A stretch of DNA of 64,000 nucleotides from a phage. This document shows positions 39,842-56,201 of the stretch, one piece after another; position 1 is the stretch's first letter, and each line of letters starts with the position of its first letter. The translations under genes were made by a program, and so were the position numbers. The stretch is from the sequence record PZ452595.1; one strand, 5' to 3'. The notes beneath the pieces were generated by a model. That model saw only the letters and a program-made list of their open reading frames with translations, was not told the origin of the DNA and did not search any database.

Positions 39842-40857
39842 TGTGTTGCCTCTACATATAACTGATTTGCATATTGAATAAGTGCTTCACGGTCAGAATC
39901 AGTGATGTCTGGAATTGCATTAATATACTCTTCCATTAATGTCTGAAGCGATTGAACTTCAACTTCTTCACTGTCATCTGACTCGACAGAGTTATCAATC
40001 TTTGACACAACTCGTAATGAATGCACAACTTTTTCTAGTTCAGATTCGAACTTCGTCAGATTTTTGTCTACTTCAGTTACTATAACACGTACTGATAGAT
40101 TTGTAAAATCTTTATAGTCAATTTTTCCTTTAAATGGATAATGAATTCTACGGTGCCAGGTAGTATTGTTTGGAATAAATTCCATTCGTTCTGTTTCTGT
40201 ATCAAACATCCAGAACCCACGAGGGTCATTCTCGTCACCTGCAGTTAGTGTCCATGGTGTCCCAATATATCTGACGTTAGCAGCCTCAGAGATAGTATGG
40301 AAGTGACCAGACCACACCTCTTTATAAGTCTTAAGGAAATCAGGTTCAAGGCCGTGAGATTTCATTCCTTTATAAAAATAAAATCCATTCAGCTCCCAGT
40401 GACCAACACAAAAAGAAGCAGATGAAGTTTTGATGTGTTCAAGAATTTCACCAGTATTTTCTTCACACATCCAAGGAATTAAATCAATCAAACATCCGTC
40501 AAAATCTACTGTAGTAGGCTTATCATATACTTTAACATTAGGATATTTAGCCAAAAGCTCAGTAGAAGCATTTGGAGTTAAAGTATTTTTAAAGTGCATA
40601 TCATGGTTTCCTACAACAGTATGTAGGGTAATACCAGCATCATCAAGCATTTGAACTATTTCACGAGCGAACTCCATAGTTTTATGCGTGATTGCTTTTC
40701 GCACATCAAAAATATCGCCGTATTGAATCCATGTAGTAATTCCATTTTTCTTAGAATATTCTATTGCTTGTTTAATTCCATCCAACTGAATAGATTGAAC
40801 CCACTCATCATCAGCTTTAACGCCTAAATGCCAATCACCTAAATTTAAAATTTTCAT
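39838..40857 (-). CDS. 47: gp47 recombination nuclease subunit (Mre11/SbcD-like)
   Basis: 339 aa as T4 gp47; phosphoesterase motifs (GDWH, GNHD). Confidence 0.85.
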   Translation of the reverse strand: MKILNLGDWHLGVKADDEWVQSIQLDGIKQAIEYSKKNGITTWIQYGDIFDVRKAITHKTMEFAREIVQMLDDAGITLHTVVGNHDMHFKNTLTPNASTELLAKYPNVKVYDKPTTVDFDGCLIDLIPWMCEENTGEILEHIKTSSASFCVGHWELNGFYFYKGMKSHGLEPDFLKTYKEVWSGHFHTISEAANVRYIGTPWTLTAGDENDPRGFWMFDTETERMEFIPNNTTWHRRIHYPFKGKIDYKDFTNLSVRVIVTEVDKNLTKFESELEKVVHSLRVVSKIDNSVESDDSEEVEVQSLQTLMEEYINAIPDITDSDREALIQYANQLYVEATQ

Positions 40858-40992
40858 ATATCAAGAACCGTCATTGAAATGCAAAATAAAATTATTGAAA
40901 TAAATCCATCTGGAGTGCTAAAGAACCCAATCCAACATGCTCTAGTGAATAGATAGAATGCAAGAAAAAGTATCACATATCCAAGAAATATC

Positions 40993-41017
40993 ATTATATC
41001 AAACTCCGTATAAAGCT
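40993..41017 (-). promoter_or_regulatory. MotA-box middle promoter upstream of gene 47
   Basis: AGCTTTA - 12 nt - TATAAT; conflicts with a possible 47-aa ORF start inside the -10. Confidence 0.4.
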
Positions 41018-41035
41018 AAAGGGCCGAAGCCCTTT
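41018..41035 (-). terminator. UUCG-tetraloop hairpin after a-gt
   Basis: aaagggccgaagcccttt. Confidence 0.55.
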
Positions 41036-42236
41036 ATTTTGTAATAATGTCAAACTGTTCTTTAAAGCAGAAGCTTGAATCTTGATGCTGATACAAAAAT
41101 TCATATGCTTTTTCTCGCTCACGGTCATAAAGAGCTCGATCAGATGACAGTTCTTTAATACGCTCGAATGTTGATTCCATGTCATTTTCATCAAACCAAA
41201 TGATACCGCTATCATGCGAGGTCAAAGGAGTATTATCAACACGGAATTTCAAATTATCACCCGTTGATTTCCAGAAAACAGGAATTGTACCGCAAGCACC
41301 AAGCTCGAGATGAGTATATTCTAAAGAACGTTGTAGATATTTTTTGTCCAACTTACTCAGCTGATAACCAAATCCGGATTTACTCATGCGTTCAAGCATT
41401 TCGCTATTTACATAACGGTCAAGAATTTGCGTTGGCAAATTAGGAGCAATTTTAATTTGGTCTACTTGATGAAGACGATAATACTCGTATGGAATTCCTT
41501 TTTCTTTAATAGGAATGAACGCTGGAGAACGTTCCAGACCTTCCATAACAGTACTTAGTCCTGCAGGTTTAAGATGTTTTTCGTGAAAATCAAACATCTG
41601 ATAAAAACCTTTCCATGTAGTCGTACGACCAATCCAACGGTTGATATTCATGTTAATTTCAGAAACATCTTTCCAGTAGGTTGATCGAACCTTCGCAATA
41701 TCCATAGGAGGCTGAAAGTTATATACGGTTGGTGCTTCTTCAATATCATCAAACAGAGAAACTGTTTCTGGATACCATTCTTTCATCAGAACTTTATTAA
41801 AATCACCATTATCAGAATGGCTAAAAATAACATCAGCTCGACGAACAGTTTCTTCTAATCCCAAATTTCGGCGCAAAGAAAGAGAAGAATGGTCATGTTG
41901 ATAAACTACAACACGAACCGAAGGTTTAATGTTATCAATAATTTTTTTATAGTTATTAATAGTATCTTCTTCAACTGAAGTAGCAGGAACTGAATTGATA
42001 ATTAGAATATCACAATCATTTACCAGCTTAAGTGTTTTATCGTATTCTTTTGCCAATAAAACCGGAATTGAAAATGATTTATAATCATGTGCACAGTTAC
42101 GAGTAAATGATTTATCTTTAGCATAAACCAAAGTTACTTCATGACCATTTTTAATAAACCAATCACGTTGCTCAAGAGAAAATTTAGTTACACCACAACC
42201 TTCAAGACCTCGAGCCATAAAAATACATACTTTCAT
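41034..42236 (-). CDS. agt: alpha-glucosyltransferase
   Basis: 400 aa; near-identical to T4 a-gt by recall (CIFMARGLEGCGVTKFSLEQ). Confidence 0.85.
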   Translation of the reverse strand: MKVCIFMARGLEGCGVTKFSLEQRDWFIKNGHEVTLVYAKDKSFTRNCAHDYKSFSIPVLLAKEYDKTLKLVNDCDILIINSVPATSVEEDTINNYKKIIDNIKPSVRVVVYQHDHSSLSLRRNLGLEETVRRADVIFSHSDNGDFNKVLMKEWYPETVSLFDDIEEAPTVYNFQPPMDIAKVRSTYWKDVSEINMNINRWIGRTTTWKGFYQMFDFHEKHLKPAGLSTVMEGLERSPAFIPIKEKGIPYEYYRLHQVDQIKIAPNLPTQILDRYVNSEMLERMSKSGFGYQLSKLDKKYLQRSLEYTHLELGACGTIPVFWKSTGDNLKFRVDNTPLTSHDSGIIWFDENDMESTFERIKELSSDRALYDREREKAYEFLYQHQDSSFCFKEQFDIITK

Positions 42237-42260
42237 TTAATATCCTCTTTGTTTTGGTTT

Positions 42261-42284
42261 ATTTTACCAAAAATTTATAAAGCA
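42261..42284 (-). promoter_or_regulatory. MotA-box middle promoter upstream of a-gt
   Basis: TGCTTTA - 11 nt - TAAAAT. Confidence 0.4.
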
Positions 42285-42286
42285 AT

Positions 42287-42306
42287 ATAGGAGCCGAAGC
42301 TCCTAT
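42287..42306 (-). terminator. UUCG-tetraloop hairpin upstream of a-gt promoter
   Basis: ataggagccgaagctcctat. Confidence 0.5.
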
Positions 42307-42479
42307 CCACATAATACGCCATACAGAGGCTCGTTAGAACTTTTAAATTTTATGCGCTTATATTTTATAGTTCCTTCTGCTTTAGCTTTATCATGAGACT
42401 CTTTAAAGCGTCTCATCATTTCCTCTTTAGAGGAACGAATTTTATTATAATCTATTTCAGAAGTCTGGGTGTTCATCTT

Positions 42480-42683
42480 TCACAGTTGCCACCATTTTTT
42501 AACTTGATAAGAATCAACCCACACTTTCATATTAGGGTCTGCTCTTACAATAGGAGGATTAACTTCTTTAATTGAACTATCATGGTATTCTTTTTCAGAA
42601 ATTTTCACACAAAGATGACCATTCAAAGATTCAGTAAATCCTGCATTAATTTTAAGACGCTTGAATTTTACGTGTGTAAGCAT
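42480..42683 (-). CDS. hypothetical protein (67 aa)
   Basis: ORF track. Confidence 0.45.
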   Translation of the reverse strand: MLTHVKFKRLKINAGFTESLNGHLCVKISEKEYHDSSIKEVNPPIVRADPNMKVWVDSYQVKKWWQL

Positions 42684-42969
42684 TAATCATATCCTCAATT
42701 TGCGATCTAGTAGTCTTCCAAAGAATACTGATGAGTTCATCGTTATATGGCTGTTTTAGAATATCCCGACTTTTCTTGATAGCATATTCGTATTGAGCAA
42801 AATTATTATTTTCAGCTGCAATCTGAGCGTGCTTATAAAGACGATTCAGTTCGCGTTTGTTTTTAGACAATAACTTATTTGCTTTTCTTTCTGCTTCAAG
42901 ACGGTTCTTTTCTTCAATAGAAGAAATAAGCTTTTCCACTTCATCATTAATTTCGGGTTTATCAGTCAT
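42652..42969 (-). CDS. hypothetical protein (105 aa)
   Basis: ORF track. Confidence 0.5.
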   Translation of the reverse strand: MTDKPEINDEVEKLISSIEEKNRLEAERKANKLLSKNKRELNRLYKHAQIAAENNNFAQYEYAIKKSRDILKQPYNDELISILWKTTRSQIEDMINAYTRKIQAS

Positions 42970-42970
42970 A

Positions 42971-43189
42971 TTATTTCTCTAATATAAAATAAAAATCATC
43001 ATCTGTTAAATGATACCGATAATTTAATTCTACACCATTAGATTTAAAAGCGGTATCATACGGATTTTCTGGATCAATATCAATGTCAAGAGCTAAAACT
43101 TCCCTGAGATACATTTTAAGTAAATAGGGAATAGCTTCAACTTCAGGTATTTCTTCCAAAAATCCGGAGAGGTTAATCGTTAGCCTCAT
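42971..43189 (-). CDS. hypothetical protein (72 aa)
   Basis: ORF track. Confidence 0.5.
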
Positions 43190-43730
43190 ATAAAAAATCC
43201 AAACTAGGAGAATCGTCTACAACACTTTTCTTTTCAGCCCCCGGTGTTCTATAGGTTGATTCTTCGTAATGCGTCATTTTATCGTAGATGTCTTGAATAA
43301 AAGTTTCATCTACTAACGCAACCATATCGTCGTCACGGCTGTCATAGACATTGTGAACGAAGTAACTATATTTCTTTGCAACTTCCTTACGTTCTTTTTT
43401 AATACGTTGGACGAATGCATTAAAACAAGCTTGAGTTATATATGCATGTGGGTTTTTATATTTCGTTTCATCAAAATTGTGAAGCCCCTTAATAGAAGCT
43501 TCTATACCATCTGCAATCATTTCTTGTTTCCAAGACTGGGTGTATCCTGAAAAGTTGAAACGTTTAGATAAGCCTTCTGCAATAAGCATAATGGCTAATC
43601 CGATAGTATCATTCTGACGAACTACTTTATTTGGGTCTTTATTATTTGCTAATTCTGTTTTCCAATCAATAATAGCTTGTAAAAGCTCTTTATTGTTTAC
43701 GTAATTATATTTAGGCTTAGTTTCTGACAT
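43173..43730 (-). CDS. 55: gp55 late-transcription sigma factor
   Basis: 185 aa from [18 protein letters not shown] as T4 gp55; track ORF starts 2 codons earlier at GTG. Confidence 0.9.
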
Positions 43731-43808
43731 TTTCACCTCTTAGCTCAATTCATAGATCTATTATATCATAATATTTGAAGATCTATCTTAAAGCATAGAG
43801 GATATCAG

Positions 43809-44078
43809 TTATCTAAGTAAACAGTATGCTTGGAATACTTTCTCCATCATCTTTTTAAATTCATGAATATCTATATAATGACTAGTTAGTTCAGCATGAT
43901 ATAAAAAGTCTAAAAACTTTTCATGTGTACTAACATATTCACTTTCATTTAATTCAGAAACATGGCTTTCCCAATATCCAACACCAGTCTTATTTGGGAA
44001 AAATGAAATTTTCATGTATTGGTCAACATAGAAAATGCCATAATTTTCAATAGTAATAGAAATATTAATAAATTTCAT
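43809..44078 (-). CDS. hypothetical protein (89 aa)
   Basis: ORF track. Confidence 0.5.
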   Translation of the reverse strand: MKFINISITIENYGIFYVDQYMKISFFPNKTGVGYWESHVSELNESEYVSTHEKFLDFLYHAELTSHYIDIHEFKKMMEKVFQAYCLLR

Positions 44079-44290
44079 ACATTTATCAGCTTAGCCGCTC
44101 CAAGAGCTGCATCTAGTGAATCAAATTGATCGACATATTCAATCAGTTTGCCGTAATTAGCATATAACCACCATTGGCTAAATTCATACTCAAGGATGAA
44201 TCCATTTCCTTCAATTTGAGTTAAACCATTGCCGTTTGTATTTACTTCATATCCGGCAAGACGTAAATCGTTAATAAGAGCTTCGTTCAT
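44075..44290 (-). CDS. hypothetical protein (71 aa)
   Basis: ORF track. Confidence 0.5.
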   Translation of the reverse strand: MNEALINDLRLAGYEVNTNGNGLTQIEGNGFILEYEFSQWWLYANYGKLIEYVDQFDSLDAALGAAKLINV

Positions 44291-44292
44291 AA

Positions 44293-44517
44293 TTATGCCT
44301 TAGTAATTTTCAGGTCTGCAAATTTTTTCTTGCGTTGATTTTTCATGCGACGAATAGTTTTATCGGAAATTTCATGCTTTTGATAAGCTTTAGATTCTAC
44401 ACCAAAAGCTTTAACATCAAATTCCGACAAGATATATTGAACCAACAATTCACGGACAGTATTGCGTCCAATTTTCTGATCATTCTGTTTCATCGTCTGA
44501 TGAAGCTCTTTTTCCAT
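44293..44517 (-). CDS. hypothetical basic protein (74 aa)
   Basis: ORF track. Confidence 0.5.
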   Translation of the reverse strand: MEKELHQTMKQNDQKIGRNTVRELLVQYILSEFDVKAFGVESKAYQKHEISDKTIRRMKNQRKKKFADLKITKA

Positions 44518-44670
44518 TTATCCAAAATTTGAGGAGTTACAATATCGCCTTTTTCTAGCAAAGAAACTACTTTATCATATGCGTAAGAATTGATGGCGTT
44601 TTTAATTTGAATAGTCATACATTATCCTCAATTGCGTTAAAATTTTATTATCCAAAAAGGGCCGAAGCCC

Positions 44671-44871
44671 TTAGCTAAACTTTTTGGCACCCTTCCAGCC
44701 TTCGTACATCATTGCGGCTGATATTAATATTGCTCCTGAGCAACTTGAATATTTGTGATTCCAAAACCAGTTTAGAAAAACTTCGTCATCAATACCTTGG
44801 GCTATCATATTTTCAAAGAACTGACGACGAGCTTCGGCAATTCGCTGCGATAATTTAGATTCAGGATTCAT
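44671..44871 (-). CDS. hypothetical protein (66 aa)
   Basis: ORF track; hairpin immediately downstream. Confidence 0.5.
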   Translation of the reverse strand: MNPESKLSQRIAEARRQFFENMIAQGIDDEVFLNWFWNHKYSSCSGAILISAAMMYEGWKGAKKFS

Positions 44872-45010
44872 TTAAATTTTCCAGTTACCGTTTTCATCAA
44901 TAAATTCAATCCAGTCATTTACTGACCACTTAGTTGTATCACCTTTTGGAGTAACATTTAAAGTGTATAACCCCTGCTTAAAAAGCATTCGTTTGATATT
45001 CATATTTTCC

Positions 45011-45349
45011 TCAGCTGTAACGATAACACTCGTTTGATTTACGTTTAGCAACTCGTTGAGATGTATTATAATCTAATTCATCGTCGATGTAAACATCTTT
45101 TTTCAACTTTCTCACTTCATTACGTAATTGACGATTTAATTCATTCTTAACCTCTGAATCAACACCTCGCATACGTCGCCATTTATCTGAACGAAAAATG
45201 TTTTCAACCATATCTTTATGACTTACACCATCAGGAGCTTTACGCTTTCCGAAATAGTCATAATCACGTACTTTTAAATCTTTACGACGATACGTTTTAC
45301 CCATGGAGTTTAATTTCCTTAGCAACTGAACTAAATACAGCACGGTCAC
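45011..45349 (-). CDS. hypothetical basic protein (112 aa)
   Basis: ORF track. Confidence 0.5.
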   Translation of the reverse strand: MTVLYLVQLLRKLNSMGKTYRRKDLKVRDYDYFGKRKAPDGVSHKDMVENIFRSDKWRRMRGVDSEVKNELNRQLRNEVRKLKKDVYIDDELDYNTSQRVAKRKSNECYRYS

Positions 45350-45479
45350 AAATCATCTGTTTATGTAACTTAAGTATAAGATAATAAACTTCAAAACCGT
45401 TTACATAAGTAACACGAACAACATTACCATTAATAAAATAATATTGTCCCCTTTTAATTTCTTTATCAACCACAACCAT
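45297..45479 (-). CDS. hypothetical protein (60 aa)
   Basis: ORF track; SD GAGGA; early promoter upstream. Confidence 0.5.
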   Translation of the reverse strand: MVVVDKEIKRGQYYFINGNVVRVTYVNGFEVYYLILKLHKQMICDRAVFSSVAKEIKLHG

Positions 45480-45509
45480 ATCAAATCCTCAAAGGCAATT
45501 CATATGTTA

Positions 45510-45539
45510 ATAATACCACAGTTTGAACTTGTTGTAAAC
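45510..45539 (-). promoter_or_regulatory. T4-type early promoter
   Basis: GTTTACA - 17 nt - TATTAT. Confidence 0.5.
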
Positions 45540-45620
45540 AACTTTGTGAAAAATATTTTAGGGAATGACAAGAAGGGAACGATAGCTTAGAATGGTAATA
45601 TACAGAATGCGAGAAAGAAA

Positions 45621-45634
45621 GGCCCAGAGGGCCC
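45621..45634 (-). terminator. GC hairpin after nrdH
   Basis: ggcccagagggccc. Confidence 0.45.
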
Positions 45635-45637
45635 GTC

Positions 45638-45961
45638 TTAATCTTCTATGATATCTCTATCATATCCAAGTGAAATGAGAGTTTCTTTGAAGTGTTTAAT
45701 GTTCTTTTGTCTAGAATCATTAATGAAAATGACTGGATAACGAATGTTAAGAGATGTGAATCCAGCGCGTTTAGCAAGAGATACAATCAGTGGACGATCA
45801 TACTCAATCTTACCGTTATTTGTAAGAACTTTATAGAAAGTAAAAGGAGCATTGAGCTCCTTTAGAAGTTTTGTAACTGATTGACATCCAGGACAACGAC
45901 CTACTTCATCTGGAATTCCATAGACTTCAATCTTATTCTTTAAGTTCGAGTTTTGTTCCAC
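45638..45961 (-). CDS. nrdH: NrdH-like glutaredoxin/thioredoxin-fold protein
   Basis: KIEVYGIPDEVGRCPGCQ redox motif; start uncertain (GTG at 45961 with AAGGAA SD, or ATG at 46009). Confidence 0.55.
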   Translation of the reverse strand: MEQNSNLKNKIEVYGIPDEVGRCPGCQSVTKLLKELNAPFTFYKVLTNNGKIEYDRPLIVSLAKRAGFTSLNIRYPVIFINDSRQKNIKHFKETLISLGYDRDIIED

Positions 45962-46244
45962 GAGAAATAATTCCTTGGTAAGCCCAATAAGGAGGATTAA
46001 CAGAATCATCACCAGAATTTTCTTCAGGGAAATAAACCTGGATAACGAAGCCGGATTCATCAAAGGTGAAATAAGTAGTAGGCAGTTCACCTAACAAATC
46101 GGCACGAGCGTCGATTTCTTCGAGGTCTTGTTCACGTCCAGCCCAGAAGCTTGGGTTCAGACTACATTCATAGAAATAATAGTCATTACCGAACATATCA
46201 AAACCATTCCAACTCTCTACTACATACCGCTCAAAACTAATCAT
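45933..46244 (-). CDS. hypothetical protein (103 aa)
   Basis: ORF track. Confidence 0.5.
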   Translation of the reverse strand: MISFERYVVESWNGFDMFGNDYYFYECSLNPSFWAGREQDLEEIDARADLLGELPTTYFTFDESGFVIQVYFPEENSGDDSVNPPYWAYQGIISRGTKLELKE

Positions 46245-46246
46245 AA

Positions 46247-46462
46247 TTAAGCCTTTTTATCAAGAACAGCATTCAGCTTGTTAGTAATTTTATCCAGACG
46301 CTCATTGAACTCACTAGAAGATAAGCCCTTTTCTGGAGAAATTAAACTAATAACGAAAAATACAACAATAAAAGGAATAAGAAAAATAGCTCCAACTGCC
46401 ATAAACAGAAAGAATGTTACAGTTGTAAGAAAATCAGCTAAACCTTTACGAAATTTATACAT
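46247..46462 (-). CDS. small membrane protein (71 aa)
   Basis: ORF track; TM segment VTFFLFMAVGAIFLIPFIVVFFVISLI. Confidence 0.5.
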   Translation of the reverse strand: MYKFRKGLADFLTTVTFFLFMAVGAIFLIPFIVVFFVISLISPEKGLSSSEFNERLDKITNKLNAVLDKKA

Positions 46463-46577
46463 ATTTTACCCTTAATTGATTAACCAAGCATTGATAAGCA
46501 CTAAACTATATTGCGAATAAAATTCTGGACCAAAATGAAAAATCATATCATTTATAGTATCCATAATGTAATTCAAT

Positions 46578-47048
46578 TTAATCATGTGTCCACCCCTCAT
46601 CGGTATTTGACCAAAGTCGCTGATTATCTGATCCTCGCCACAGCTTTTTGGTCGGAAGATTTTTCTCATACTTCCCATCAATAATAACATCAACATATTT
46701 AAGCATTTCTAGTTGTTTAATATCTTCAAACTTATATCCTGTCCACAACCAAATGCTTTTATTGGGATAAAGATTTTTAATAGTTTGAACCACAGAGTGA
46801 ATCACGTCTCTGTTATCAGGATAAAGAGGGTCTCCTCCAGTTATAGTTAATCCTTCTATATAATCATTATTCAAACATTCAATTAATTGCTCTAGTGTTT
46901 CACCAGTGAATGGAATGCCATTTCTAGCATTCCATGTTGATTTATTATAACACCCTTCACATTTATGCAAACAACCTGTAACGAAAAGAACGACCCTGCA
47001 ACCAGGGCCATTCACAAAATCGCAAGGATAAAATCTATCATAATTCAT
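46578..47048 (-). CDS. nrdG: NrdG, anaerobic ribonucleotide reductase activase (radical SAM)
   Basis: 156 aa as T4 NrdG; cysteine cluster CLHKCEGC. Confidence 0.85.
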   Translation of the reverse strand: MNYDRFYPCDFVNGPGCRVVLFVTGCLHKCEGCYNKSTWNARNGIPFTGETLEQLIECLNNDYIEGLTITGGDPLYPDNRDVIHSVVQTIKNLYPNKSIWLWTGYKFEDIKQLEMLKYVDVIIDGKYEKNLPTKKLWRGSDNQRLWSNTDEGWTHD

Positions 47049-48862
47049 TGGTGTTTAACCCTATGCATGATTTCTTTATTTTTACCGAGATTAAATCCGC
47101 GTTCGTTCGGATTTCCCAAATAACCACATGTTCTTCTTATTGTATTCATCTTTTTAGGATCAGTTTCTCCACAAATAGAACAAACAAATCCGTTTTCAGT
47201 AGGAGTCATTTCATGGGTACTTCCGCATGTAAAACATTTATCTACTGGCATATTAACACCAAAATAATCTAAATGTTGTGCAGCATAATCCCATACGGCC
47301 TCAAGACCTTTTAAGTTATTTTTCATATCAGGAAGTTCAACATAAGAAATGTGACCACCTGTCGCAATGAAATGATATGGCGCTTCACGAGAAATCTTTT
47401 CAAACGGAGTAATATTTTCTTCTACTGAAACATGGAAACTGTTAGTGTACCAACCTTTATCGGTAACATCTTTTACGCTTCCATATTTTTCTGTATCGAG
47501 TTTACAGAAGCGATAACAAAGGTTTTCAGCAGGAGTCGAATATAAACTAAAAGCAAATCCGGTTCTTTCAGTCCACTGTTTAAGATGAGCATTCATTTTA
47601 GTTAAAATTTCTCGTCCAATATCACGACCGACAAGAATATTCAATTCGTGAATACCAATGTATCCTAAAGACACTGAACTTCTACCGTTTTTAAATAACT
47701 CAATTATGTCGTCATCAGGTTTAAGACGAACCCCGAATGCACCTTCTTGGTAAAGAATAGGAGCAACAGTAGCTTTAACTCCTTTTAAGGAACTAATTCT
47801 ACACATCAAAGCTTCAAAACATAAATCCATTCGTTCATTGAATAATTCGATAAATTTCTGTTCATTGAACTGTGTTCCAATATAAGAATCTAACGCGATG
47901 CGAGGAAGATTTAATGTTACAACACCGAGATTATTACGTCCATCAAGAATTTCATTACCGGTTGAATCTTTCCACACACTCAAGAAACTACGGCAACCCA
48001 TTGGAGAAACAGGAATAGATGAGCCGGTGATAGCTTTATTGTTCTTAGCTGAAATAATATCAGGATACATTCTTTTGCTTGCGCACTCTAGAGCAAGCTG
48101 TTTAATATCATAGTTCGGATCGTCTTTATAAAGATTAACACCTTCTTCAACGAACATAACAAGTTTAGGGAAAATAGGAGTTATCCCATCACGACCAAGA
48201 CCTTTAATACGATTTTTCAGAATTGCTTTCTGAATCATTCGTTCAGTCCAGTCAGTTCCTGTACCAAATGTAATTGTTACAAAAGGTGTTTGTCCGTTTG
48301 AACTAAAGAGAGTATTTACTTCATATTCATAAGCTTGGAATGCATCGTATACATCTTTTTCTGTTTTAGATTGAGCATAATTCAACGCATCAGCGATTTG
48401 CCATTTTTCTGCATCCTCAATATGTTTTGCATAGGTGCGTTTAACATAAGGAGAAAGTACTTTATCGACATTAGCAAATGTAGTTCCGCCATATTGGTGA
48501 GAAGCAACCTGTGCAGTAATTTGTGCCATAATTGCAGTAGCAACACCGATTGATTTAGGAGTTTCAATCTGTGCATTACCAAGCTTAAATCCGTTCTCAA
48601 GCATTCCTTTTAAATCTACTAAACAGCAATTAGTAAATGGAAGAGCAGGGGAATAATCAATATCGTGGAAATGAATAATTCCGCTTTCATGCGCTTTCAT
48701 AATAAAAGACGGGACCTTATTTTTGGCAATGTGTTTAGACACAATACCAGCCATAAGGTCCCGTTGAGTTGGAAAAACACGAGAATCTTTATTAGCATTC
48801 TCGTTTAAAAGGTCTTTATTAGTTTTATGAATCAATCCTTCAATTTCTTTTTCAATTGTCAT
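47045..48862 (-). CDS. nrdD: NrdD, anaerobic ribonucleoside-triphosphate reductase (intronless)
   Basis: 605 aa continuous ORF; C-terminal glycyl-radical region RRTCGYLG; ATGA coupling with nrdG. Confidence 0.9.
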   Translation of the reverse strand: MTIEKEIEGLIHKTNKDLLNENANKDSRVFPTQRDLMAGIVSKHIAKNKVPSFIMKAHESGIIHFHDIDYSPALPFTNCCLVDLKGMLENGFKLGNAQIETPKSIGVATAIMAQITAQVASHQYGGTTFANVDKVLSPYVKRTYAKHIEDAEKWQIADALNYAQSKTEKDVYDAFQAYEYEVNTLFSSNGQTPFVTITFGTGTDWTERMIQKAILKNRIKGLGRDGITPIFPKLVMFVEEGVNLYKDDPNYDIKQLALECASKRMYPDIISAKNNKAITGSSIPVSPMGCRSFLSVWKDSTGNEILDGRNNLGVVTLNLPRIALDSYIGTQFNEQKFIELFNERMDLCFEALMCRISSLKGVKATVAPILYQEGAFGVRLKPDDDIIELFKNGRSSVSLGYIGIHELNILVGRDIGREILTKMNAHLKQWTERTGFAFSLYSTPAENLCYRFCKLDTEKYGSVKDVTDKGWYTNSFHVSVEENITPFEKISREAPYHFIATGGHISYVELPDMKNNLKGLEAVWDYAAQHLDYFGVNMPVDKCFTCGSTHEMTPTENGFVCSICGETDPKKMNTIRRTCGYLGNPNERGFNLGKNKEIMHRVKHQ

Positions 48863-49332
48863 TTTAAACTCTTTCTAAGCTGCTTCTTAAATGAAGCTAT
48901 TAACTGTGTTTTGGTGTCAGATTCATTATATTCAAATCCTCTTTGAAGCATCTCGGCCATCATTTCCTCTTTTCCTAAACGAGAAAATTCCTTTGATTTA
49001 TCTCCAACAAAGTTAGGGTGAATATTATTTTGGGTGTAATCGGATTTTAAATAAGTAAGTAAATTTTCTAACCATTCAAGATAATCAACACCTTGTCCCT
49101 TTAAGCCAGAACGATTAAATTTATGCTTCATTTGACCTTCTGCGGCATTGCAGAGATTACAAAGCAATCCACGTACCTTTCCAGCTTTCGGTCCGTTTAA
49201 TTCATGGTCATGGTCGAGGTGATTAGCTTGAACATCAGGATTTAGTTCTCGTTGGCAAATTAAGCATTTACCGTTTTGCGCATCATAAAATTTCTGTTTT
49301 TCTTCTTTATATAATTTGCCAGTCAATAACAT
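48859..49332 (-). CDS. 49: gp49 endonuclease VII (Holliday junction resolvase)
   Basis: 157 aa as T4 gp49; zinc-binding CLICQ...HLDHDH. Confidence 0.85.
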   Translation of the reverse strand: MLLTGKLYKEEKQKFYDAQNGKCLICQRELNPDVQANHLDHDHELNGPKAGKVRGLLCNLCNAAEGQMKHKFNRSGLKGQGVDYLEWLENLLTYLKSDYTQNNIHPNFVGDKSKEFSRLGKEEMMAEMLQRGFEYNESDTKTQLIASFKKQLRKSLK

Positions 49333-49373
49333 AATAAACCCTTACCTTAAATAGATAAGGGTATTTATTATTT

Positions 49374-49859
49374 TCAAGTATTGTAAAACATTTGATGCAA
49401 TCGCTTATATTGCCGAATCTTTTGGTCAGAAAAAGAAATTTGATTTTCAAGCCATTCAATGTATTCTGCGGCAGCTTGCATCAGGTTACCTTCATAGCCA
49501 TCGTTATTTTCTTGTGCAGCTAATTTAGCTAATGCGTATGAAATACGTTCACCTTGAAAATCGGCTTTAGGCTTCTGAACAACTTGATTAGTTCGCTCTA
49601 CAACTTCTTCAATTTCGCCATTTTCGACTGATTCAGTATTCCACAAGCACCAATACGTAATTGGCTTATCGTAGATGTTAATAATTTTTCCATCAGAAAG
49701 TTCAATTTCAATAATTCCAGTGTCAGGCTCTATATCATCTTCACATTCTTTTGCAAGTTCACGAACTTTAAAGACAGTACCTGCACTAAGTTCCGGCCAG
49801 TAATTACACAGCCCTGTATCAGCACGATTAATTCTAAACCACTTATCTACTGTAATCAT
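49374..49859 (-). CDS. pin: Pin, inhibitor of host Lon protease
   Basis: 161 aa from MITVDKWFRINR (track start is TTG); position after gene 49. Confidence 0.7.
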   Translation of the reverse strand: MITVDKWFRINRADTGLCNYWPELSAGTVFKVRELAKECEDDIEPDTGIIEIELSDGKIINIYDKPITYWCLWNTESVENGEIEEVVERTNQVVQKPKADFQGERISYALAKLAAQENNDGYEGNLMQAAAEYIEWLENQISFSDQKIRQYKRLHQMFYNT

Positions 49860-49981
49860 GTCCCATCTCCATATCAATTAAGTCATTTATCGTTGGTTCA
49901 TTATATACTGTTTCTTCATCAGTGTAAACCGGTTCTTCCGGCTCTGGCTCTACAGTTTCCCATCTAGCCGCCCACCAAGGT

Positions 49982-50191
49982 TTAACCCCGAAGCTTATTA
50001 AGTTCTTCATAATCAATCCAGGATTCTAATCCTGATGGCAGGTCACATTCAATTTCCCAAAGAAGTTCTTCAATTTTATGAAGACGATCTAATTCTTCAA
50101 CAGGAATAGTAACCATTGATGGAGCTCTTGCTGCACTAATATCGTATATCATATTTACCCCAGTTTGACCATGCAATCGCCGTATTTCCAC
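49982..50191 (-). CDS. hypothetical protein (69 aa)
   Basis: ORF track. Confidence 0.5.
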   Translation of the reverse strand: MEIRRLHGQTGVNMIYDISAARAPSMVTIPVEELDRLHKIEELLWEIECDLPSGLESWIDYEELNKLRG

Positions 50192-50370
50192 TTAGAAATA
50201 GACTTTTCGCCGTTAGAATAATAAACTTCGAGTTTAGCACGATTATTTTTAATTTGAATAACCTTGGCTGTCATCAAAGTTCCATACCCATAGTAAACTG
50301 CAACTTCATCACCTACATATACCGCGCTGCCGCGGTAATCGTGAATATAGTCAGTTCCTTCAAGCATCAT
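50155..50370 (-). CDS. hypothetical protein (71 aa)
   Basis: ORF track; ATGA-type coupling with nrdC. Confidence 0.5.
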   Translation of the reverse strand: MMLEGTDYIHDYRGSAVYVGDEVAVYYGYGTLMTAKVIQIKNNRAKLEVYYSNGEKSISKWKYGDCMVKLG

Positions 50371-50630
50371 TTAAAATATTCTCGCAATTGGTCAAATCCA
50401 CCAATATGACTTCCATCAGGAGCAAATACCTGAGGCATTGTCAAGCCGATTTGAGTATCACGACCTAGTTTAGTCAGAAGCTCAGCAATTTTCTCATCAT
50501 CAAAAACACCTTTTTCTGGCATAATGTTGATAAATTCAAACGGCTGTTTCTTCACAGTCAAAAGACGTTTTGCATTATCGCAGTACACGCATTTATGGAT
50601 GTTGCTATCATAACCATATACTTTAAACAT
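50367..50630 (-). CDS. nrdC: NrdC thioredoxin/glutaredoxin
   Basis: 87 aa; MFKVYGYDSNIHKCVYCDNAKRLL as T4 thioredoxin. Confidence 0.85.
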   Translation of the reverse strand: MFKVYGYDSNIHKCVYCDNAKRLLTVKKQPFEFINIMPEKGVFDDEKIAELLTKLGRDTQIGLTMPQVFAPDGSHIGGFDQLREYFK

Positions 50631-50631
50631 A

Positions 50632-50874
50632 TTATTCCTTAATTCCTAGTACTTGTTTAAAAGTCTCGTCGTAATCAAGACTTTGGCCCGTTTGTTCTTT
50701 ATGTTTGTATATAATATCACTTACTTCTGATAGCATATTTTTATATGAACGAGTTAAAGCTGATTTAAGCACGCTGTATCTATCAGGAAATTTACCATGT
50801 TCATTATAATAAGCTATTGCTAATTCACGGACTGCCTTTTCAGCAGCCTCCATATATTCTTTACGCTTTGTCAT
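50632..50874 (-). CDS. hypothetical protein (~80 aa)
   Basis: Internal ATG ([13 protein letters not shown]); track ORF 50632..51033 overlaps 50861..51178 in another frame. Confidence 0.45.
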
Positions 50875-51178
50875 TTTCTTCTCGGTCAAATCGGTGTTTA
50901 CAATGACGACATTTATAACGAAGATTATTAGTCTGCCAATGGACCAATTGCACCTGTTCAGTTCCACACTCAGGGCAATTAGGAACGTTTTTAGAAGCTC
51001 TTTCACGTCGTTCAACCATAGCCATAATAGCATCCCATGCTGGAGGTTTAAAATCTAAATCGTCGCAGCCGTGAATCTTTCCACGCATTTCCATATCATC
51101 TTCCTCACCAGCCATAATAATTTTAATTAGACTGGAATTACTTGAAGCTGCAATATCTTCTAATAAACGCTTTTTCAT
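50861..51178 (-). CDS. zinc-ribbon protein (105 aa)
   Basis: ORF track; CPECG...CRHCKH. Confidence 0.55.
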
Positions 51179-52098
51179 TTCAGTACCTCAATAGCATCAC
51201 GTAAACCATTTGCTTTGGCTGTTAAAGCCTTAAGAACTTTAGTATGCTCTTCAATCTGTTTTTCAACTTCAATCAAACGAGCACTGAGATATTCGCGTTC
51301 TTCTTTCATAGTATCATTCCCATGATTGGGCTTTGGTGTAGGTTTAAATTTACTAGGGTCCTTTAACTTAATAACAATTTTAGTTTCAAACAGTGAAAGA
51401 CCATAATTCGTATTATCATCAAAGGATTCAACTACGTCCATTTTAGACAATAACGTACGAAGATTATAAGTCAAAGAACGAATCGTTTTATTATGTTTAT
51501 TAGCTTCGCATGGTTTCATATATGGAAGATTTTTATATATTTCATGTGGAGCACAAACAATAATTGACAATTCAACTGGTCCATTCTGCGATGGAATGAA
51601 TTTAGCCGTAACCCAATCTTTTACATTTACATTAATAGTACGGTCATCGCCATGACAAAACAGTCTACGAGAATGCTTAAAAAGCATATTCACATTATTA
51701 TTAAATTCGTGTGAAAACTCACTAGCAAATTTTTCTTTACTATTTTTAGAAAACCATTCTTCTAAATAAGTTCTTTTCACGTCATTAATAATATTAAATG
51801 TAACAACATTAGCATTTGATACATTAGTCTCAATGTAGCTTGGATACATAAATTTTTTAACATTATTAACAGCTATCACAGAAGATAGTAATCGGGAACG
51901 TTTGAACCACTCGAGCAAAGAACCAAGAGAATGTGAATACGCATTTTGTGTATCTTTACAAATATGATTTTCCCATCCAATATAGTCTAAAAAATCACGA
52001 AGAATATTATTGATTACTGCTCTGTGTCCTATCTGATAATTACGATGTTTAGTAATAAGACTGTCAAAATAATCAATATAATGTTTACGAGTTTTCAT
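51175..52098 (-). CDS. hypothetical protein, paralogue family member 1 (307 aa, C-terminal coiled coil)
   Basis: Shares FKHSRRLFCHGDD core and heptad-like C-terminal tail with three neighbours. Confidence 0.6.
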   Translation of the reverse strand: MKTRKHYIDYFDSLITKHRNYQIGHRAVINNILRDFLDYIGWENHICKDTQNAYSHSLGSLLEWFKRSRLLSSVIAVNNVKKFMYPSYIETNVSNANVVTFNIINDVKRTYLEEWFSKNSKEKFASEFSHEFNNNVNMLFKHSRRLFCHGDDRTINVNVKDWVTAKFIPSQNGPVELSIIVCAPHEIYKNLPYMKPCEANKHNKTIRSLTYNLRTLLSKMDVVESFDDNTNYGLSLFETKIVIKLKDPSKFKPTPKPNHGNDTMKEEREYLSARLIEVEKQIEEHTKVLKALTAKANGLRDAIEVLK

Positions 52099-52152
52099 GT
52101 TCTTCTCACTTGGTTAATGATTTATACTCCGAGCCATCCTTGGCTTTAAATT

Positions 52153-53154
52153 TTACTTAATTAACTGTAAAGCTTGTTCAAGACGATCAAGACGATTAAC
52201 AGATTCTTCCCAAATCCTTTTAGCCTGCTCATATTCTTTCTGCGCTTTATTAGAAATTTCTAGAACTTCTTTATAAGCTTTTTCTAATGCAATAACTTCT
52301 GGACGAATTTCTATCGGTTCAGGTGAATCGTCAAGACATTCCATTAGTTCCTCAAGGGTAGTTTCTTCTTTAGGAGTATTCACAATTTCATCACATTTTT
52401 GCTGGTAAATTTCTTTATCAGTCAGTGAGTACGCACACTTTACTTCACGAAGACTAACTACAATTTTATATCCTTCCCAGCCGCATATATTCTTAAAAGG
52501 ATATGTATGAATATTTTCTACTGTTTCCATACAAAGTAATGCGGTCTCTAATTGACGAGTTATAGTGCTAGCAATTGAGAAAAATTTATTAATATTCTTT
52601 TGGTTAGTTTCTGGTGTAAAAAATCTGTAATTAATAAAAATAGCTACTTTGTTTTTATCAAGCTCATATTCTTCTGCTATAATCATATCATCAGCTAATG
52701 GATGAATTTGACGATAATCGCCATAACATAATTTAGAAGCTGATTTTAGAATTTGCTTCGTAAAACTCCTAAATTCACTAACCCAACGACGAGTAAAAAT
52801 ATTCTCAGGGTCTTCTTTATTATTAAGATGATAAGAATTAACATCACCGAACCAATTATATCCTACTACATCTTTGGTTCGTTTAATTTCTTTCCCAAAT
52901 TTACTAAGAATATCTTGATTAACTAAATATGAAAGAAGACGAGACCCTTTAAAGGTTTCCTTAATATCATCTTTATCTGCACGACTAGAAATTTTATGAA
53001 CTTCATGAATAAATTTGCTGGAAGAAACAATACTTGCATCAGTATTATTGAGCCATTGATTGATAATGGAAATAACGCTATTCTGACTAGACATAGGTTT
53101 AACTTTATCATCAATAACGCTATTGAATGATTTGATATATTCGTTACGAGTCAT
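52153..53154 (-). CDS. hypothetical protein, paralogue family member 2 (~333 aa)
   Basis: ATG with GGAG SD (track start 53190 reads through promoter); FTKQILKSASKLCYGD core; coiled-coil tail. Confidence 0.6.
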   Translation of the reverse strand: MTRNEYIKSFNSVIDDKVKPMSSQNSVISIINQWLNNTDASIVSSSKFIHEVHKISSRADKDDIKETFKGSRLLSYLVNQDILSKFGKEIKRTKDVVGYNWFGDVNSYHLNNKEDPENIFTRRWVSEFRSFTKQILKSASKLCYGDYRQIHPLADDMIIAEEYELDKNKVAIFINYRFFTPETNQKNINKFFSIASTITRQLETALLCMETVENIHTYPFKNICGWEGYKIVVSLREVKCAYSLTDKEIYQQKCDEIVNTPKEETTLEELMECLDDSPEPIEIRPEVIALEKAYKEVLEISNKAQKEYEQAKRIWEESVNRLDRLEQALQLIK

Positions 53155-53188
53155 AATAATAATAATCTCCTCAGTAGAAAGTAAGAAC

Positions 53189-53218
53189 ATTATACCACAT
53201 CCTTGTGGTAAAGTAAAC
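53189..53218 (-). promoter_or_regulatory. T4-type early promoter upstream of paralogue 2
   Basis: GTTTACT - 17 nt - TATAAT; identical to 8962-8993. Confidence 0.6.
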
Positions 53219-54246
53219 TAGTTTAGTGCATTTAGTGCATTGTTCAGTTTAGAACGTTGCTTCGTGAGATTTTTGACTTTTTCTTGAGCTTTTTCTAGCA
53301 TCTTTTCAGCTTCTAACACTTCATTGGTTGCTTTAACGAGTTCATCATCTACAGCCTTAAGAGACTTCTCAATCGCGTCAGCGTGCCATTTTTCAACAGG
53401 TTTAAGACTCGGATTTTCAATAGGAAGAAAATTCACTTTATTGAATTTCCATGCATCCTTATTACCTGAACTATACATCCAAAATTTAGGATCGTTTGAT
53501 GAGTAATTGGATAAATTTAAATTTAAGTTATCTTGCACTTCTTGCTTTTTCTCTTGCGTGACTTCGTCTTTTCTCAAAAAATCGTATTTAAATGAAACGA
53601 TCATATCAAGTTCATATGTTGTTGTGTCTAATTTAAATCGTTCGAAATGCTGTGAAATCTTAGACTGAACAGCGGCAACAACATCCATATACTTAAATGC
53701 TTCTGTCAGCTGTGATTTAAGGCATTCGCAAATTGAAAGAGAATTTTTTGTATTAGGTTTAAAGCTAATTCGTGCAGTTCTATTATTTTCTTTTAACGGT
53801 CTTACTTCCATCTGAAGAGTATAACCATCAAATTTCAGGTTCTTTAAGTTAATATCAGAACCTTTTAATCGACTAGCCGTCGACAAAATTTGCTTTAATT
53901 GTTTACGGAATAGAGCAATAAATCTCCATTCAATACGATAATGATTTGGATTAAAAAATCCAGATGATAAATCAACCTTACTCTGACCAACACCTTGAAC
54001 AAATAGAGGATTTTTATAATCAATAGTTTTACAGAAATCAGTGAGCTGCTCACGAGCAGTCATTTGAGTAATATACCCAGCTTCATTAAAATTACGCACC
54101 CATTCACTGCTGTTCAGATGTTTAAAGGCGTGAATGGAACAATTAACTTTACCAAGGTCTAAATTATTTTCGCACAAAAATGTCATAGCATCACGAGTAT
54201 AGCTGGCATTACGAACCATATCTTCAATTTGAGAACGAGTTTTCAT
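53218..54246 (-). CDS. hypothetical protein, paralogue family member 3 (342 aa)
   Basis: FRKQLKQILSTASRLKGSD core; coiled-coil tail. Confidence 0.6.
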   Translation of the reverse strand: MKTRSQIEDMVRNASYTRDAMTFLCENNLDLGKVNCSIHAFKHLNSSEWVRNFNEAGYITQMTAREQLTDFCKTIDYKNPLFVQGVGQSKVDLSSGFFNPNHYRIEWRFIALFRKQLKQILSTASRLKGSDINLKNLKFDGYTLQMEVRPLKENNRTARISFKPNTKNSLSICECLKSQLTEAFKYMDVVAAVQSKISQHFERFKLDTTTYELDMIVSFKYDFLRKDEVTQEKKQEVQDNLNLNLSNYSSNDPKFWMYSSGNKDAWKFNKVNFLPIENPSLKPVEKWHADAIEKSLKAVDDELVKATNEVLEAEKMLEKAQEKVKNLTKQRSKLNNALNALN

Positions 54247-54254
54247 AGTGTTCC

Positions 54255-55157
54255 TTAAGATTTAAGTAAATCAACAATTTTAATTAATTTTTCACGCTCA
54301 GATTTAGCTTTACTACTCAATCCAGATAGTCTGAAAATTTCATCGTCATATTGTTGAATAGAAATATTCAGCTCTTCAATTTGCTTATTAAAATAATCAA
54401 TTTGTTCAGAATGTTTTTCGTTACTACGAACTGGTACAGGTTTTGTAGGCAATTTAGTTGAACTGGATTCATCCGGGCGATAAATTAAAATACAACTTGA
54501 ACCAATAGGGCATTTAGCACCAGATGAATATTCTAACGTTCCAGCTTCTTTTAAAACTTCAAAAGCTAAACAGAGATGATGCCCCATATTAACATAATCT
54601 GTAGAGCGAGCTCTGATATAATAATCATCGCCGCGAATACTAAATTTAAAGCATTTAAGGTCTTCTGTATTATTGGTCTTAAAAATCATTTGTTTATCTA
54701 GACCTTTAGCTAATCGAGCGCCTAATGCTAATAATCGTCGTTGATTTTCCCACAAATCTGCGATCATTTGGTCAAATGATAATTTCGGCATTAGTCGACC
54801 ATAAAGGTCATATCCTTTATTATAATTGCGAAGGATTTCACTCGCATTAATACGAGACAACGCTCCAATTTTATTAAGGGCTTTCATGATGCGATTAGAT
54901 AAACCCATTCCAGACCCGTTTGTTCGTTGTAAATGTTTATCTAATCCAAACCCAATATCAACTTTAAATTTATCTAAAATTTCAGCATGAACATCTCTGT
55001 CAATAACATTCAAATCCAAAGTTGGGTTAAATCTATGAAAAAATTTATCTGGCTCTCCACGACGAAGTACAGTCCATTCATTTAATTTTTTATTAACTAA
55101 AGATTTAATTACTGTATTGACATTATTAATTACTACTGACATATTTTTCTCACTCAA
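54255..55157 (-). CDS. hypothetical protein, paralogue family member 4 (300 aa)
   Basis: NQRRLLALGARLAKGLD core; coiled-coil tail. Confidence 0.6.
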   Translation of the reverse strand: MSEKNMSVVINNVNTVIKSLVNKKLNEWTVLRRGEPDKFFHRFNPTLDLNVIDRDVHAEILDKFKVDIGFGLDKHLQRTNGSGMGLSNRIMKALNKIGALSRINASEILRNYNKGYDLYGRLMPKLSFDQMIADLWENQRRLLALGARLAKGLDKQMIFKTNNTEDLKCFKFSIRGDDYYIRARSTDYVNMGHHLCLAFEVLKEAGTLEYSSGAKCPIGSSCILIYRPDESSSTKLPTKPVPVRSNEKHSEQIDYFNKQIEELNISIQQYDDEIFRLSGLSSKAKSEREKLIKIVDLLKS

Positions 55158-55558
55158 TTTTCAATTTTACTAAATACACAGAATATGATGGAAAAGACTA
55201 TATAAGCACCGCATACAGATTGAACTAATACCATTCCAAAGAACCAAACAATATTATCAAACCATGTCTGTTTTACGTCGAAAGGACGTAAACTTACAGT
55301 AATATTATCGCCTTTTTCTATTGATGAATACATCTCTGGTGAAATATATTCGCTAAATCTATAACCGTCTTTGAGTTCATATACGGCAATAAACGATAAA
55401 CTAGACCCCTTTCCTTGAGTTCCTGTAAAGGTATTAACTACAGTAACATCATAATCTTTATAATGCATATAATCATTAATTGCGTAATAACCATATGCAA
55501 CTACTACACATAAACAACATATCAATAAATTCAATCTTTTAATTATCAACTGTTTCAT
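55154..55558 (-). CDS. membrane protein (134 aa, two TM segments)
   Basis: ORF track; first gene of the operon containing the four paralogues. Confidence 0.55.
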   Translation of the reverse strand: MKQLIIKRLNLLICCLCVVVAYGYYAINDYMHYKDYDVTVVNTFTGTQGKGSSLSFIAVYELKDGYRFSEYISPEMYSSIEKGDNITVSLRPFDVKQTWFDNIVWFFGMVLVQSVCGAYIVFSIIFCVFSKIEN

Positions 55559-56199: not shown

Positions 56200-56201
56200 A
56201 A

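Follow-up and report, generated by a model that had tools for sequence, protein, structure and literature searches.

Uninterrupted nrdD and vacant homing-endonuclease sites across the nrd cluster of a T4-like phage

We analyzed a stretch of 64,000 nucleotides of phage DNA (PZ452595.1; hereafter, the window) and found the homing sites of its nrdH-nrdG-nrdD-49-pin-nrdC cluster to be empty, with an nrdD gene that carries no intron and with no homing-endonuclease gene inserted between the neighbors. An intronless nrdD without homing endonucleases is the normal state of T4-like phages, and it is T4 that is the exception; the intronless state is in itself already known biology. The source is very probably an ordinary Tequatrovirus, that is, a coliphage of the T4 kind whose glucosylation genes are of T2/T6 type, a judgment that we hold jointly with the whole of the empty-site explanation developed below.

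When compared with a phage collection, in which there are roughly 560 to 690 related genomes, the phage showed 96 to 98% nucleotide identity to many Escherichia and Shigella tequatroviruses. The closest records match at about 96 to 98% over long stretches and none is identical, so that the source phage is a separate isolate or a mosaic. Which relative is closest varies from one segment of the window to another. Gene order is collinear with that of T4 throughout the 64 kb, and each break in synteny could be explained. In the nrd region, genes, order, and strand are as in T4, and in JK23 and others the entire cluster is colinear with the window and 97 to 98% identical. The features of this region are as follows.

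45638..45961, minus strand: nrdH glutaredoxin, ca. 107 aa, probable GTG start at 45961 (T4 nrdH alignment; frame and GTG read from the sequence)
45933..46244, minus strand: conserved hypothetical ORF of 103 aa between nrdH and 55.8, missing from T4, not a nuclease (PHROG 2749)
46247..46462, minus strand: gene 55.8 homologue, small membrane protein (ORF; aligns to T4 from 42128)
46578..47048, minus strand: nrdG, anaerobic reductase activating enzyme, 156 aa, with a CLHKCEGC cysteine motif (ORF and motif; T4 alignment)
47045..47048, minus strand: ATGA shared by the nrdD stop and the nrdG start; vacant mobC site (sequence CACCAATGAATTATG)
47045..48862, minus strand: nrdD, large subunit of the anaerobic ribonucleoside-triphosphate reductase, 605 aa, uninterrupted (ORF, Pfam, and T4 alignment)
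48305..48326, minus strand: 22-nt tract differing from T4 at 7 silent positions; haplotype of intronless phages (alignment)
48324..48325, minus strand: vacant position where T4 nrdD has its group I intron, between CDS nt 538 and 539 (splice-junction mapping, unique best position)
48859..49332, minus strand: gene 49, endonuclease VII, Holliday-junction resolvase (T4 gp49 identity and Pfam)
49374..49877, minus strand: pin, protease inhibitor (ORF; aligns to T4 pin)
49982..50370, minus strand: two small ORFs of 69 and 71 aa in place of T4 49.2/49.3, not nucleases (no T4 alignment)
50367..50630, minus strand: nrdC thioredoxin, 87 aa (ORF; aligns to T4 nrdC)

The true start of pin is probably the ATG at 49859. 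The Pfam Glutaredoxin family matched two ORFs in that half of the window, which we took as nrdH and nrdC.

The first-pass annotation had read nrdD as one continuous ORF and the nrdD-nrdG boundary as an ATGA overlap, and both readings were confirmed. The NRDD domain is present at full length (PF13597, E = 8.5e-171, model positions 1 to 562 of 562) and is accompanied by a C-terminal glycyl-radical domain (PF01228 Gly_radical, E = 1.2e-25, residues 481 to 586). Adjoining it is nrdG, whose CxxxCxxC-type motif and alignment to T4 nrdG mark it as a radical-SAM activase. With catalytic domain, Gly_radical, and adjacent NrdG all in place, the product is a class III (anaerobic) ribonucleotide reductase NrdD, and it would be produced directly as one polypeptide. 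Against the spliced T4 nrdD CDS the alignment is colinear and free of gaps, with identity at 1763 of 1818 nt and 601 of 605 aa; it shows no inserted segment at the T4 exon junctions and gives a unique best position for the splice junction. The T4 intron, of 1033 nt, would sit between window positions 48325 and 48324, over which the CDS runs unbroken. Mismatches to T4 also cluster away from this site, at CDS 192-198 and 1012-1023. No group I intron was matched by Rfam at gathering thresholds anywhere in the 64 kb, and a permissive scan of 45000..51000 found no RF00028 ribozyme core at E ≤ 1, only two chance-level, non-intron matches; as a positive control, the method recovered the intron of T4 nrdD with a score of 105 bits. 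Because Rfam gave no match and the protein aligns without gaps to spliced T4 NrdD, a hidden intron or intein is ruled out. The same uninterrupted 605-aa nrdD is found in the intronless nrdD (sunY) alleles of T2/T6 type and in other tequatroviruses (AR1, RB10, JK23, and wV7), whereas in T4 the gene holds a group IA intron encoding I-TevII and is followed by mobC, neither of which is present in the window.

Around the vacant intron site, 120 nt of the window are 100% identical to AR1 and at least 99% identical in 117 records. Within the 22-nt tract, the version with T4's seven silent nucleotides occurred in 5/5 intron-bearing phages examined, and that of the window in 3/3 intronless phages, which span three genera; the haplotype separates intronless from intron-bearing phages, and the window's version is the majority state among intronless phages in those genera. 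At the other end of the gene, where T4 has the 633-nt mobC, the start codon of nrdG directly overlaps the stop codon of nrdD, and translation of nrdG is probably coupled to the nrdD stop through the ATGA. Alleles of the AR1, RB10, JK23, and wV7 type have the same direct junction, with no difference of substance. The nrdG/55.8 segment is 85.8% identical to T4 at the nucleotide level, and the 5′ 400 nt of nrdG, which have diverged further, merely 74 to 82%.

Other T4 endonuclease sites that fall within the window were located by alignment or by the genes that occupy them.

9327..9390, minus strand: vacant T4 gene 60/60.1/mobA insertion site (T4 alignment)
22029..22073, minus strand: vacant site of segF, flanked by soc and gene 56 (T4 alignment)
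28482..29427, minus strand: beta-glucosyl-HMC-alpha-glucosyltransferase, 282 aa, replacing T4 segA and beta-gt (Pfam TAGT; PHROG 842, E = 1e-88)
42228..42251, minus strand: vacant mobB site beside alpha-gt (T4 alignment)
58703..59664, minus strand: membrane-protein ORF of 153 aa and y05I-like ORF of 173 aa replacing T4 mobD (Pfam T4_y05I_N/C; PHROG 944 and 1502)

All 7 of the T4 homing-endonuclease sites within the window are empty, which bears out the earlier claim that such genes are absent from every T4 seg/mob location in it; gene 39 is unsplit (8991..10811, 606 aa). Identity to T4 falls on just one side of each vacant free-standing site, as in uvsX and in gene 56, which lies next to the segF site and is 72 to 85% identical to T4. 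Gene 56 and uvsX are the published targets of SegF and SegA, respectively (PMC2988022, Table 1).

This pattern raises the possibility that the empty-site state is actively maintained, the 22-nt haplotype and the one-sided divergence of 56, uvsX, nrdG, alpha-gt, and mobD.1 representing cleavage-resistant variants. We consider this improbable; if it were true, the sharp divergence of the first ca. 400 nt of nrdG would mark the MobC target. The related proposal that the clustered silent differences at the intron position and the diverged neighbors (56, the uvsX 5′ end, and the nrdG 5′ end) are resistant variants that keep the lineage free of homing endonucleases seems very improbable to us. It draws on the seven silent differences within 22 nt of the I-TevII binding/cleavage region, compared with 3% divergence over the whole gene, and on the one-sided dips in identity. 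However, the haplotype is so widespread among intronless phages that co-conversion of an intron-linked tract in the few carriers accounts better for the polymorphism, and the mismatch clusters elsewhere in nrdD show that such differences are not confined to the site. Moreover, T2-type nrdD and gene 56 alleles are reportedly documented as cleavable recipients in T4 × T2 crosses. Homing endonucleases also tolerate many substitutions in their targets (PMC2988022).

The absence of endonuclease genes was examined at the level of domains as well as sites. In tblastn searches of the 64 kb with all 15 T4 homing endonucleases, nothing fell below E = 0.028, which was the best value with HNH queries (0.039 with GIY-YIG queries). 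Pfam was applied to 237 window ORFs together with 14 T4 controls, and the counts for GIY-YIG, SegE_GIY-YIG, HNH, NUMOD1, and NUMOD3 were those of the controls alone. Pfam by itself was rejected as an adequate screen, since genuine T4 SegF gave no Pfam match at E ≤ 0.01, and for this reason Seg/Mob profiles built from T4 proteins were added. These recover every T4 copy, including a 37-aa mobA remnant, and gave E values from 1e-36 to 0.014 in a leave-one-out check. Against 1,210 six-frame ORFs of the window, nothing fell below E = 0.29, the best value for Mob-type HNH (0.35 for GIY-YIG). In T4 itself, mobA and I-TevIII are decayed copies. That one of the seven T4 sites might hold a decayed remnant was ruled out, in that both tblastn and the local profiles came up empty despite a sensitivity that extends to the 37-aa mobA remnant. 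No LAGLIDADG match was found in individual Pfam scans of the 20 ORFs specific to the window; for the remaining ORFs, in whose pooled scan a single weak match could lie outside the 25 families listed, the domain's presumed absence rests on their orthology to T4 genes, none of which is known to encode it.

The profile search thus found no GIY-YIG or HNH homing endonuclease in the 64 kb, and the earlier statement that the window has no GIY-YIG- or HNH-like ORF holds for homing endonucleases. Taken literally, it fails because of gene 49, whose endonuclease VII has a His-Me/HNH-like fold. The gene 49 product is identical to T4 gp49 (157/157 aa, 100%, in the tblastn-stage comparison) and has the same Endonuclease_7 (PF02945, E = 5.4e-22) and dimerization (Endonuc-dimeris, PF09124, E = 1.5e-33) domains; with a catalytic and a T4-type dimerization domain, it can be assigned to the endonuclease VII (gp49) family. 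Unlike the mobile homing endonucleases, T4 endonuclease VII is a conserved packaging and recombination enzyme. Gene 49 was not picked up by the Mob-type HNH profile in the local search, and it is a junction resolvase, neither a selfish element nor a homing endonuclease.

One might still suppose that an undescribed selfish element hides in a small ORF absent from T4, such as that at 45933..46244 or those at the mobD site. Compared with T4, these ORFs are either inserted or stand in for other genes, most are of unknown function, and even a genuine SegF escapes Pfam. Nevertheless, we regard the idea as extremely unlikely. No nuclease domain was found in the 20 ORFs without a T4 counterpart (each scanned with Pfam, and 10 also with PHROGs), nor did Pfam, PHROGs, or the local Seg/Mob profiles detect a DNA-binding homing-endonuclease module in the candidates, most of which are too short (51 to 123 aa). 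A nuclease was in this way ruled out among the window-specific ORFs, including the two at the mobD site and the 103-aa ORF by nrdH; the 69- and 71-aa ORFs at 49982..50370 match Pfam DUF7205 and PHROG 3402 and 2112. The 103-aa ORF, which has no Pfam match and belongs to PHROG 2749 (unknown function, E = 1.9e-48), is further ruled out as a nuclease by its wide conservation: 526 phage records have it in the same position beside nrdH, so that it is T4 that lacks it.

The first-pass annotation had judged the segment to be unusually free of selfish elements. This was not borne out, and the error lay in taking T4 as the norm. Counted as records rather than independent lineages, with RefSeq/GenBank duplicates and many T4 resequencings included, the unbroken 120-nt stretch over the intron site occurs in 603 records versus 27 with the T4 intron, and the direct nrdD-nrdG junction in ca. 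623 (at least one, PST, being a false positive with 82% coverage and mobC present) versus 32 with mobC. T4 itself makes up about half of the 27 intron-bearing records. Among the ca. 560 to 690 related genomes, segF was found in 50 records, segA in 27, mobB in 62, and mobD in 47, in a census that covered T4-type endonuclease genes, other families at these sites (e.g., segH) lying outside it. T4 has been described as an outlier in homing-endonuclease content (PMC2988022; PMC2993671, Table 5): whole genomes contain 15 in T4, 11 in T6, 1 in T2, 2 in RB14, and none in RB26; for RB69, the prediction is likewise none (PMC2993671, Table 5 and text).

The empty-site state of the cluster is common to about 95% of sequenced relatives, and we propose that the T4 intron with I-TevII and mobC are lineage-specific insertions that the window phage may never have received or that may have been replaced through recombination with intronless alleles. 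The alleles of the window are of recipient type: the 22-nt haplotype of intronless phages occupies the I-TevII site, and the genes flanking the free-standing endonuclease sites are T2-like diverged versions. Being of recipient type, these loci would be targets of homing and marker exclusion in mixed infection with a T4-type phage; both their susceptibility to cleavage and their never-invaded history are inferred.

On sequence alone, precise secondary loss or back-conversion would look the same as a history without invasion. Life-cycle models of homing endonucleases predict a succession of invasion, decay, and loss, and an ancestor that carried other endonuclease genes along with the intron and/or mobC and lost them precisely, whether through deletion or by recombining with intronless relatives, would fit such models, as do the decayed copies in T4. 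T-even genomes are also highly mosaic, as the differing best relatives of parts of the window illustrate. We nonetheless think this history unlikely. No remnant of a T4 endonuclease or intron was found, although the mobA remnant is detectable in T4, and the sites are clean, the ATGA overlap, for example, being common to ca. 600 phages. Moreover, the window has the common intronless haplotype and not the intron-linked one, which excludes simple deletion of the intron from a T4-type allele and leaves whole-allele replacement as the only form of loss that fits.

What the analysis contributes is a corrected frame of reference: it is T4 whose stock of homing endonucleases is unusually large, and the window is typical. 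The window offers a clean example of the recipient alleles at seven T4 homing sites together, and the clear intron-linked flanking haplotype could provide a set of markers for crosses on homing or marker exclusion.

The nrd cluster (window 45638..50630) has matches in more than 1,000 phage records in a search of the phage collection, the top ones being Escherichia/Shigella tequatroviruses that are 97-98% identical to this 5-kb region and colinear with it end to end. The remaining parts of the window have different top relatives (wV7, MLF4, T6, and PST, at ~96-97% identity), and no record in the collection is identical to it. These matches identify the window as part of a T4-like phage, T2/T6 in type. 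Its sizeable genes all lie on the minus strand, its G+C content is ~34%, and its length departs from that of the nearest relatives by no more than a few hundred bases across 24-25 kb.

The T4 genome was rebuilt from AF158101 and aligned to the window, the T4 equivalent of which runs from 162.5 kb via the origin to 60.7 kb; each break in the alignment was accounted for. All seven sites within this stretch at which T4 carries the nrdD intron or a homing-endonuclease gene are empty or otherwise occupied, which bears out what the first-pass annotation had said of the T4 seg/mob positions. Unlike T4, the window lacks the insertion at T4 2794..3910 (the 50-nt translational bypass of gene 60, 60.1, and the mobA remnant), and it does not have dam (DNA adenine methyltransferase) at the place between genes 56 and 61 where T4 does (T4 16826..17724); some 20 nt (22633..22652) lie there.

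T4 sites and associated genes in the window, with identity to T4 of the adjoining flank
8991..10811, minus: gene 39 (topoisomerase II large subunit), unsplit 606-aa ORF
9327..9390, minus: mobA/60.1 and gene 60 insertion site, empty
22029..22073, minus: segF site, empty; adjoined by gene 56 (22074..22632), 72-85%
minus: segA site, segA replaced together with beta-gt; adjoined by the uvsX 5' end (27900..28481), 75-81%
28571..29419, minus: beta-glucosyl-HMC-alpha-glucosyltransferase (PHROG 842, E 1e-88)
41034..42236, minus: alpha-gt, T2/T6-type glucosylation gene
42228..42251, minus: mobB site, empty; adjoined by the alpha-gt 5' end (41830..42227), 78-82%
47045..47048, minus: mobC site, empty; adjoined by the nrdG 5' end (46650..47044), 74-82%
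48324/48325, minus: intron and I-TevII site, empty
58703..59664, minus: mobD site, taken over by two ORFs, one for a membrane protein and one y05I-like; adjoined by mobD.1 (59665..60221), 82-92%

Repeated intergenic elements of ~65-130 nt each (1055..1182, 4363..4451, 4626..4735, 12602..12715, 31196..31286, 56137..56203, and 57568..57699) are 72-98% identical to many T4 intergenic sites and are presumably the early-promoter/stem-loop cassettes of T4-type phages.

As had been claimed, nrdD is continuous, a single 605-aa ORF (47045..48862, minus strand) whose product matches Pfam NRDD over its full length and has a Gly_radical domain. The splice junction was mapped by cutting each possible 1033-nt segment from T4 nrdD and comparing the remainder with the window; the best junction was unique and fell after CDS nt 538. 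There the T4 5' exon ends in ...GCTTATGAGT, the intron ends in CACATTG, and the 3' exon begins with ATGAAGTG; the terminal bases (T for the 5' exon, G for the intron) fit the expectation for a group I intron. Aligned at this junction, the window gene is gap-free (1763/1818 nt and 601/605 aa identical) and has no inserted segment, the empty site falling between window 48325 and 48324. Rfam at gathering thresholds gave no match in the whole 64 kb, and a permissive Rfam scan of 45-51 kb gave just two chance-level matches to unrelated families; the T4 nrdD intron, as a positive control, was detected at 105 bits (E 2e-27). NrdD is made here without splicing.

The reported ATGA overlap is likewise present: the nrdD stop directly overlaps the nrdG start, whereas T4 has the 633-nt mobC exactly at this position, and the overlap suggests that nrdG translation is coupled to that of nrdD. 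A 21-nt segment (47028..47048) aligns with the starts of two T4 genes, nrdG and mobC; the N termini of NrdG and MobC both read MNYDR, and Mob proteins all start MNY..(I/V)Y. This double alignment may be due to chance or may reflect microhomology where mobC inserted.

The cluster runs nrdH, small ORF, 55.8, nrdG, nrdD, 49, pin, small ORFs, nrdC, and is the T-even module for anaerobic nucleotide reduction in its plain form. The acidic 103-aa ORF between nrdH and 55.8 (45933..46244; PHROG 2749, function unassigned in PHROG) overlaps the nrdH start by ~29 nt. T4 is without it, it occupies the same place in 526 phage records, and its presence is the common state. In place of T4 49.2/49.3 lies a small ORF (49982..50191; about 56-69 aa) with a match at E 3e-39 to PHROG 3402, annotated as "antitoxin from a toxin-antitoxin system," and a weak one to the T7 gp5.9 RecBCD-inhibitor family (Pfam E 0.012). 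Pfam DUF7438 is matched by six small ORFs in 30500..64000 (e.g., 60493..60678), which points to a set of related paralogues some 60 aa long.

The statement that no GIY-YIG or HNH endonuclease-like ORF is evident held insofar as four independent tests, the synteny map among them, found no homing endonuclease; taken literally, it failed for gene 49 (48859..49332), which encodes endonuclease VII (Pfam Endonuclease_7 plus a dimerisation domain), a protein of the His-Me/HNH-like fold class. This conserved resolvase does not count as a selfish element. A tblastn search of the window with all 15 T4 homing endonucleases and two controls gave nothing under E = 0.028; gp49 was recovered by tblastn at 100% identity. 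The experimentally characterised T4 SegF (segF at L002 15606..16280) matches no Pfam-A family at E<=0.01; Seg-type endonucleases can escape Pfam-only screens, and local profiles were therefore needed. Built for GIY-YIG and HNH from T4 Seg/I-Tev and Mob proteins, these gave leave-one-out E-values of 1e-36 to 0.014 and found all T4 copies, including a 37-aa mobA remnant outside the training set; against 1,210 stop-to-stop ORFs (>=25 aa, six frames) they found nothing under E = 0.29. When 237 window ORFs (minus strand, >=40 aa; plus strand, >=60 aa) were Pfam-scanned with 14 T4 endonucleases spiked in, the member counts for GIY-YIG (6), SegE_GIY-YIG (6), HNH (4), NUMOD3 (4), and NUMOD1 (2) equalled those that the controls give by themselves. 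The proposed profile check for GIY-YIG/HNH, by Pfam and local profiles together, thus found no homing-endonuclease domain in window ORFs. Direct exclusion of LAGLIDADG was limited to window-specific ORFs. Nothing supports the idea that the small ORFs hide a novel element; each of the 20 ORFs in segments without a T4 counterpart was Pfam-scanned, 10 of them also against PHROGs, and no scan turned up a nuclease module.

What did not survive is the description of the segment as unusually free of selfish elements: empty sites are the majority in the phage collection, and the T4-type insertions the minority. Counted as records in that collection (related pool roughly 560-690), the T4 nrdD intron occurs in 27 (T4 itself and laboratory derivatives make up about half), mobC in 32, segF in 50, segA in 27, mobB in 62, and mobD in 47. 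A 120-nt stretch with the empty intron site at its centre is matched without interruption (>=80% coverage) in 603 records (117 at >=99% identity; AR1 at 100%); one with the ATGA junction at its centre is matched without interruption in ~623, including at least one false positive (PST). A screen of 18 phages by Sandegren et al. in 2005 reportedly found mobC in T4 only. Published work points the same way: whole-genome totals of homing endonucleases are 15 in T4, 11 in T6, 8 in RB3, 2 in RB14/RB15/RB18, 1 in T2, and none in RB26, JS98, and others (Petrov et al., PMC2993671, Table 5); RB69 is predicted to be without HEGs (Petrov et al., PMC2993671).

Seven of the 55 nucleotide differences between the window and T4 nrdD, all seven silent, fall within 22 nt at the insertion site (CDS 537-558; window 48305..48326). 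Among the flanks sampled, the T4 version of this tract is present in 5/5 intron carriers (T4, PST, EC128, fPS-2, and G8); the window version recurs in P896 (Gaprivervirus) and AlbertHofmann (Mosigvirus), both intronless and each from another genus, and so spans three genera. Polymorphisms farther from the site show no association with the intron. The intron-associated tract is what one would predict if homing co-converts the exon sequence beside the intron (a mechanism set out in PMC2988022), and it looks like an intron-linked co-conversion tract. In 200-nt bins, identity to T4 drops on one flank only of each empty free-standing site, the opposite flank being mostly 96-100%; SegF and SegA have gene 56 and uvsX, respectively, as their published targets (PMC2988022, Table 1), and by analogy the nrdG dip may mark the target of MobC. 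At the tract and at these flanks, the window carries recipient-type alleles.

That the elements were once present and have since been precisely lost we consider improbable; the window holds no remnants of them, and its haplotype is the majority intronless type, not the intron-linked one. Resistance, by which target-site variants would block cleavage, is unlikely because this haplotype predominates across genera and nrdD has further mismatch clusters elsewhere.

The first-pass annotation was therefore correct that the elements are absent but mistaken in calling this "unusual." The window is an ordinary member of its kind, its biology already known, and its recipient-type loci could, we infer, be converted by a T4-type co-infecting phage.
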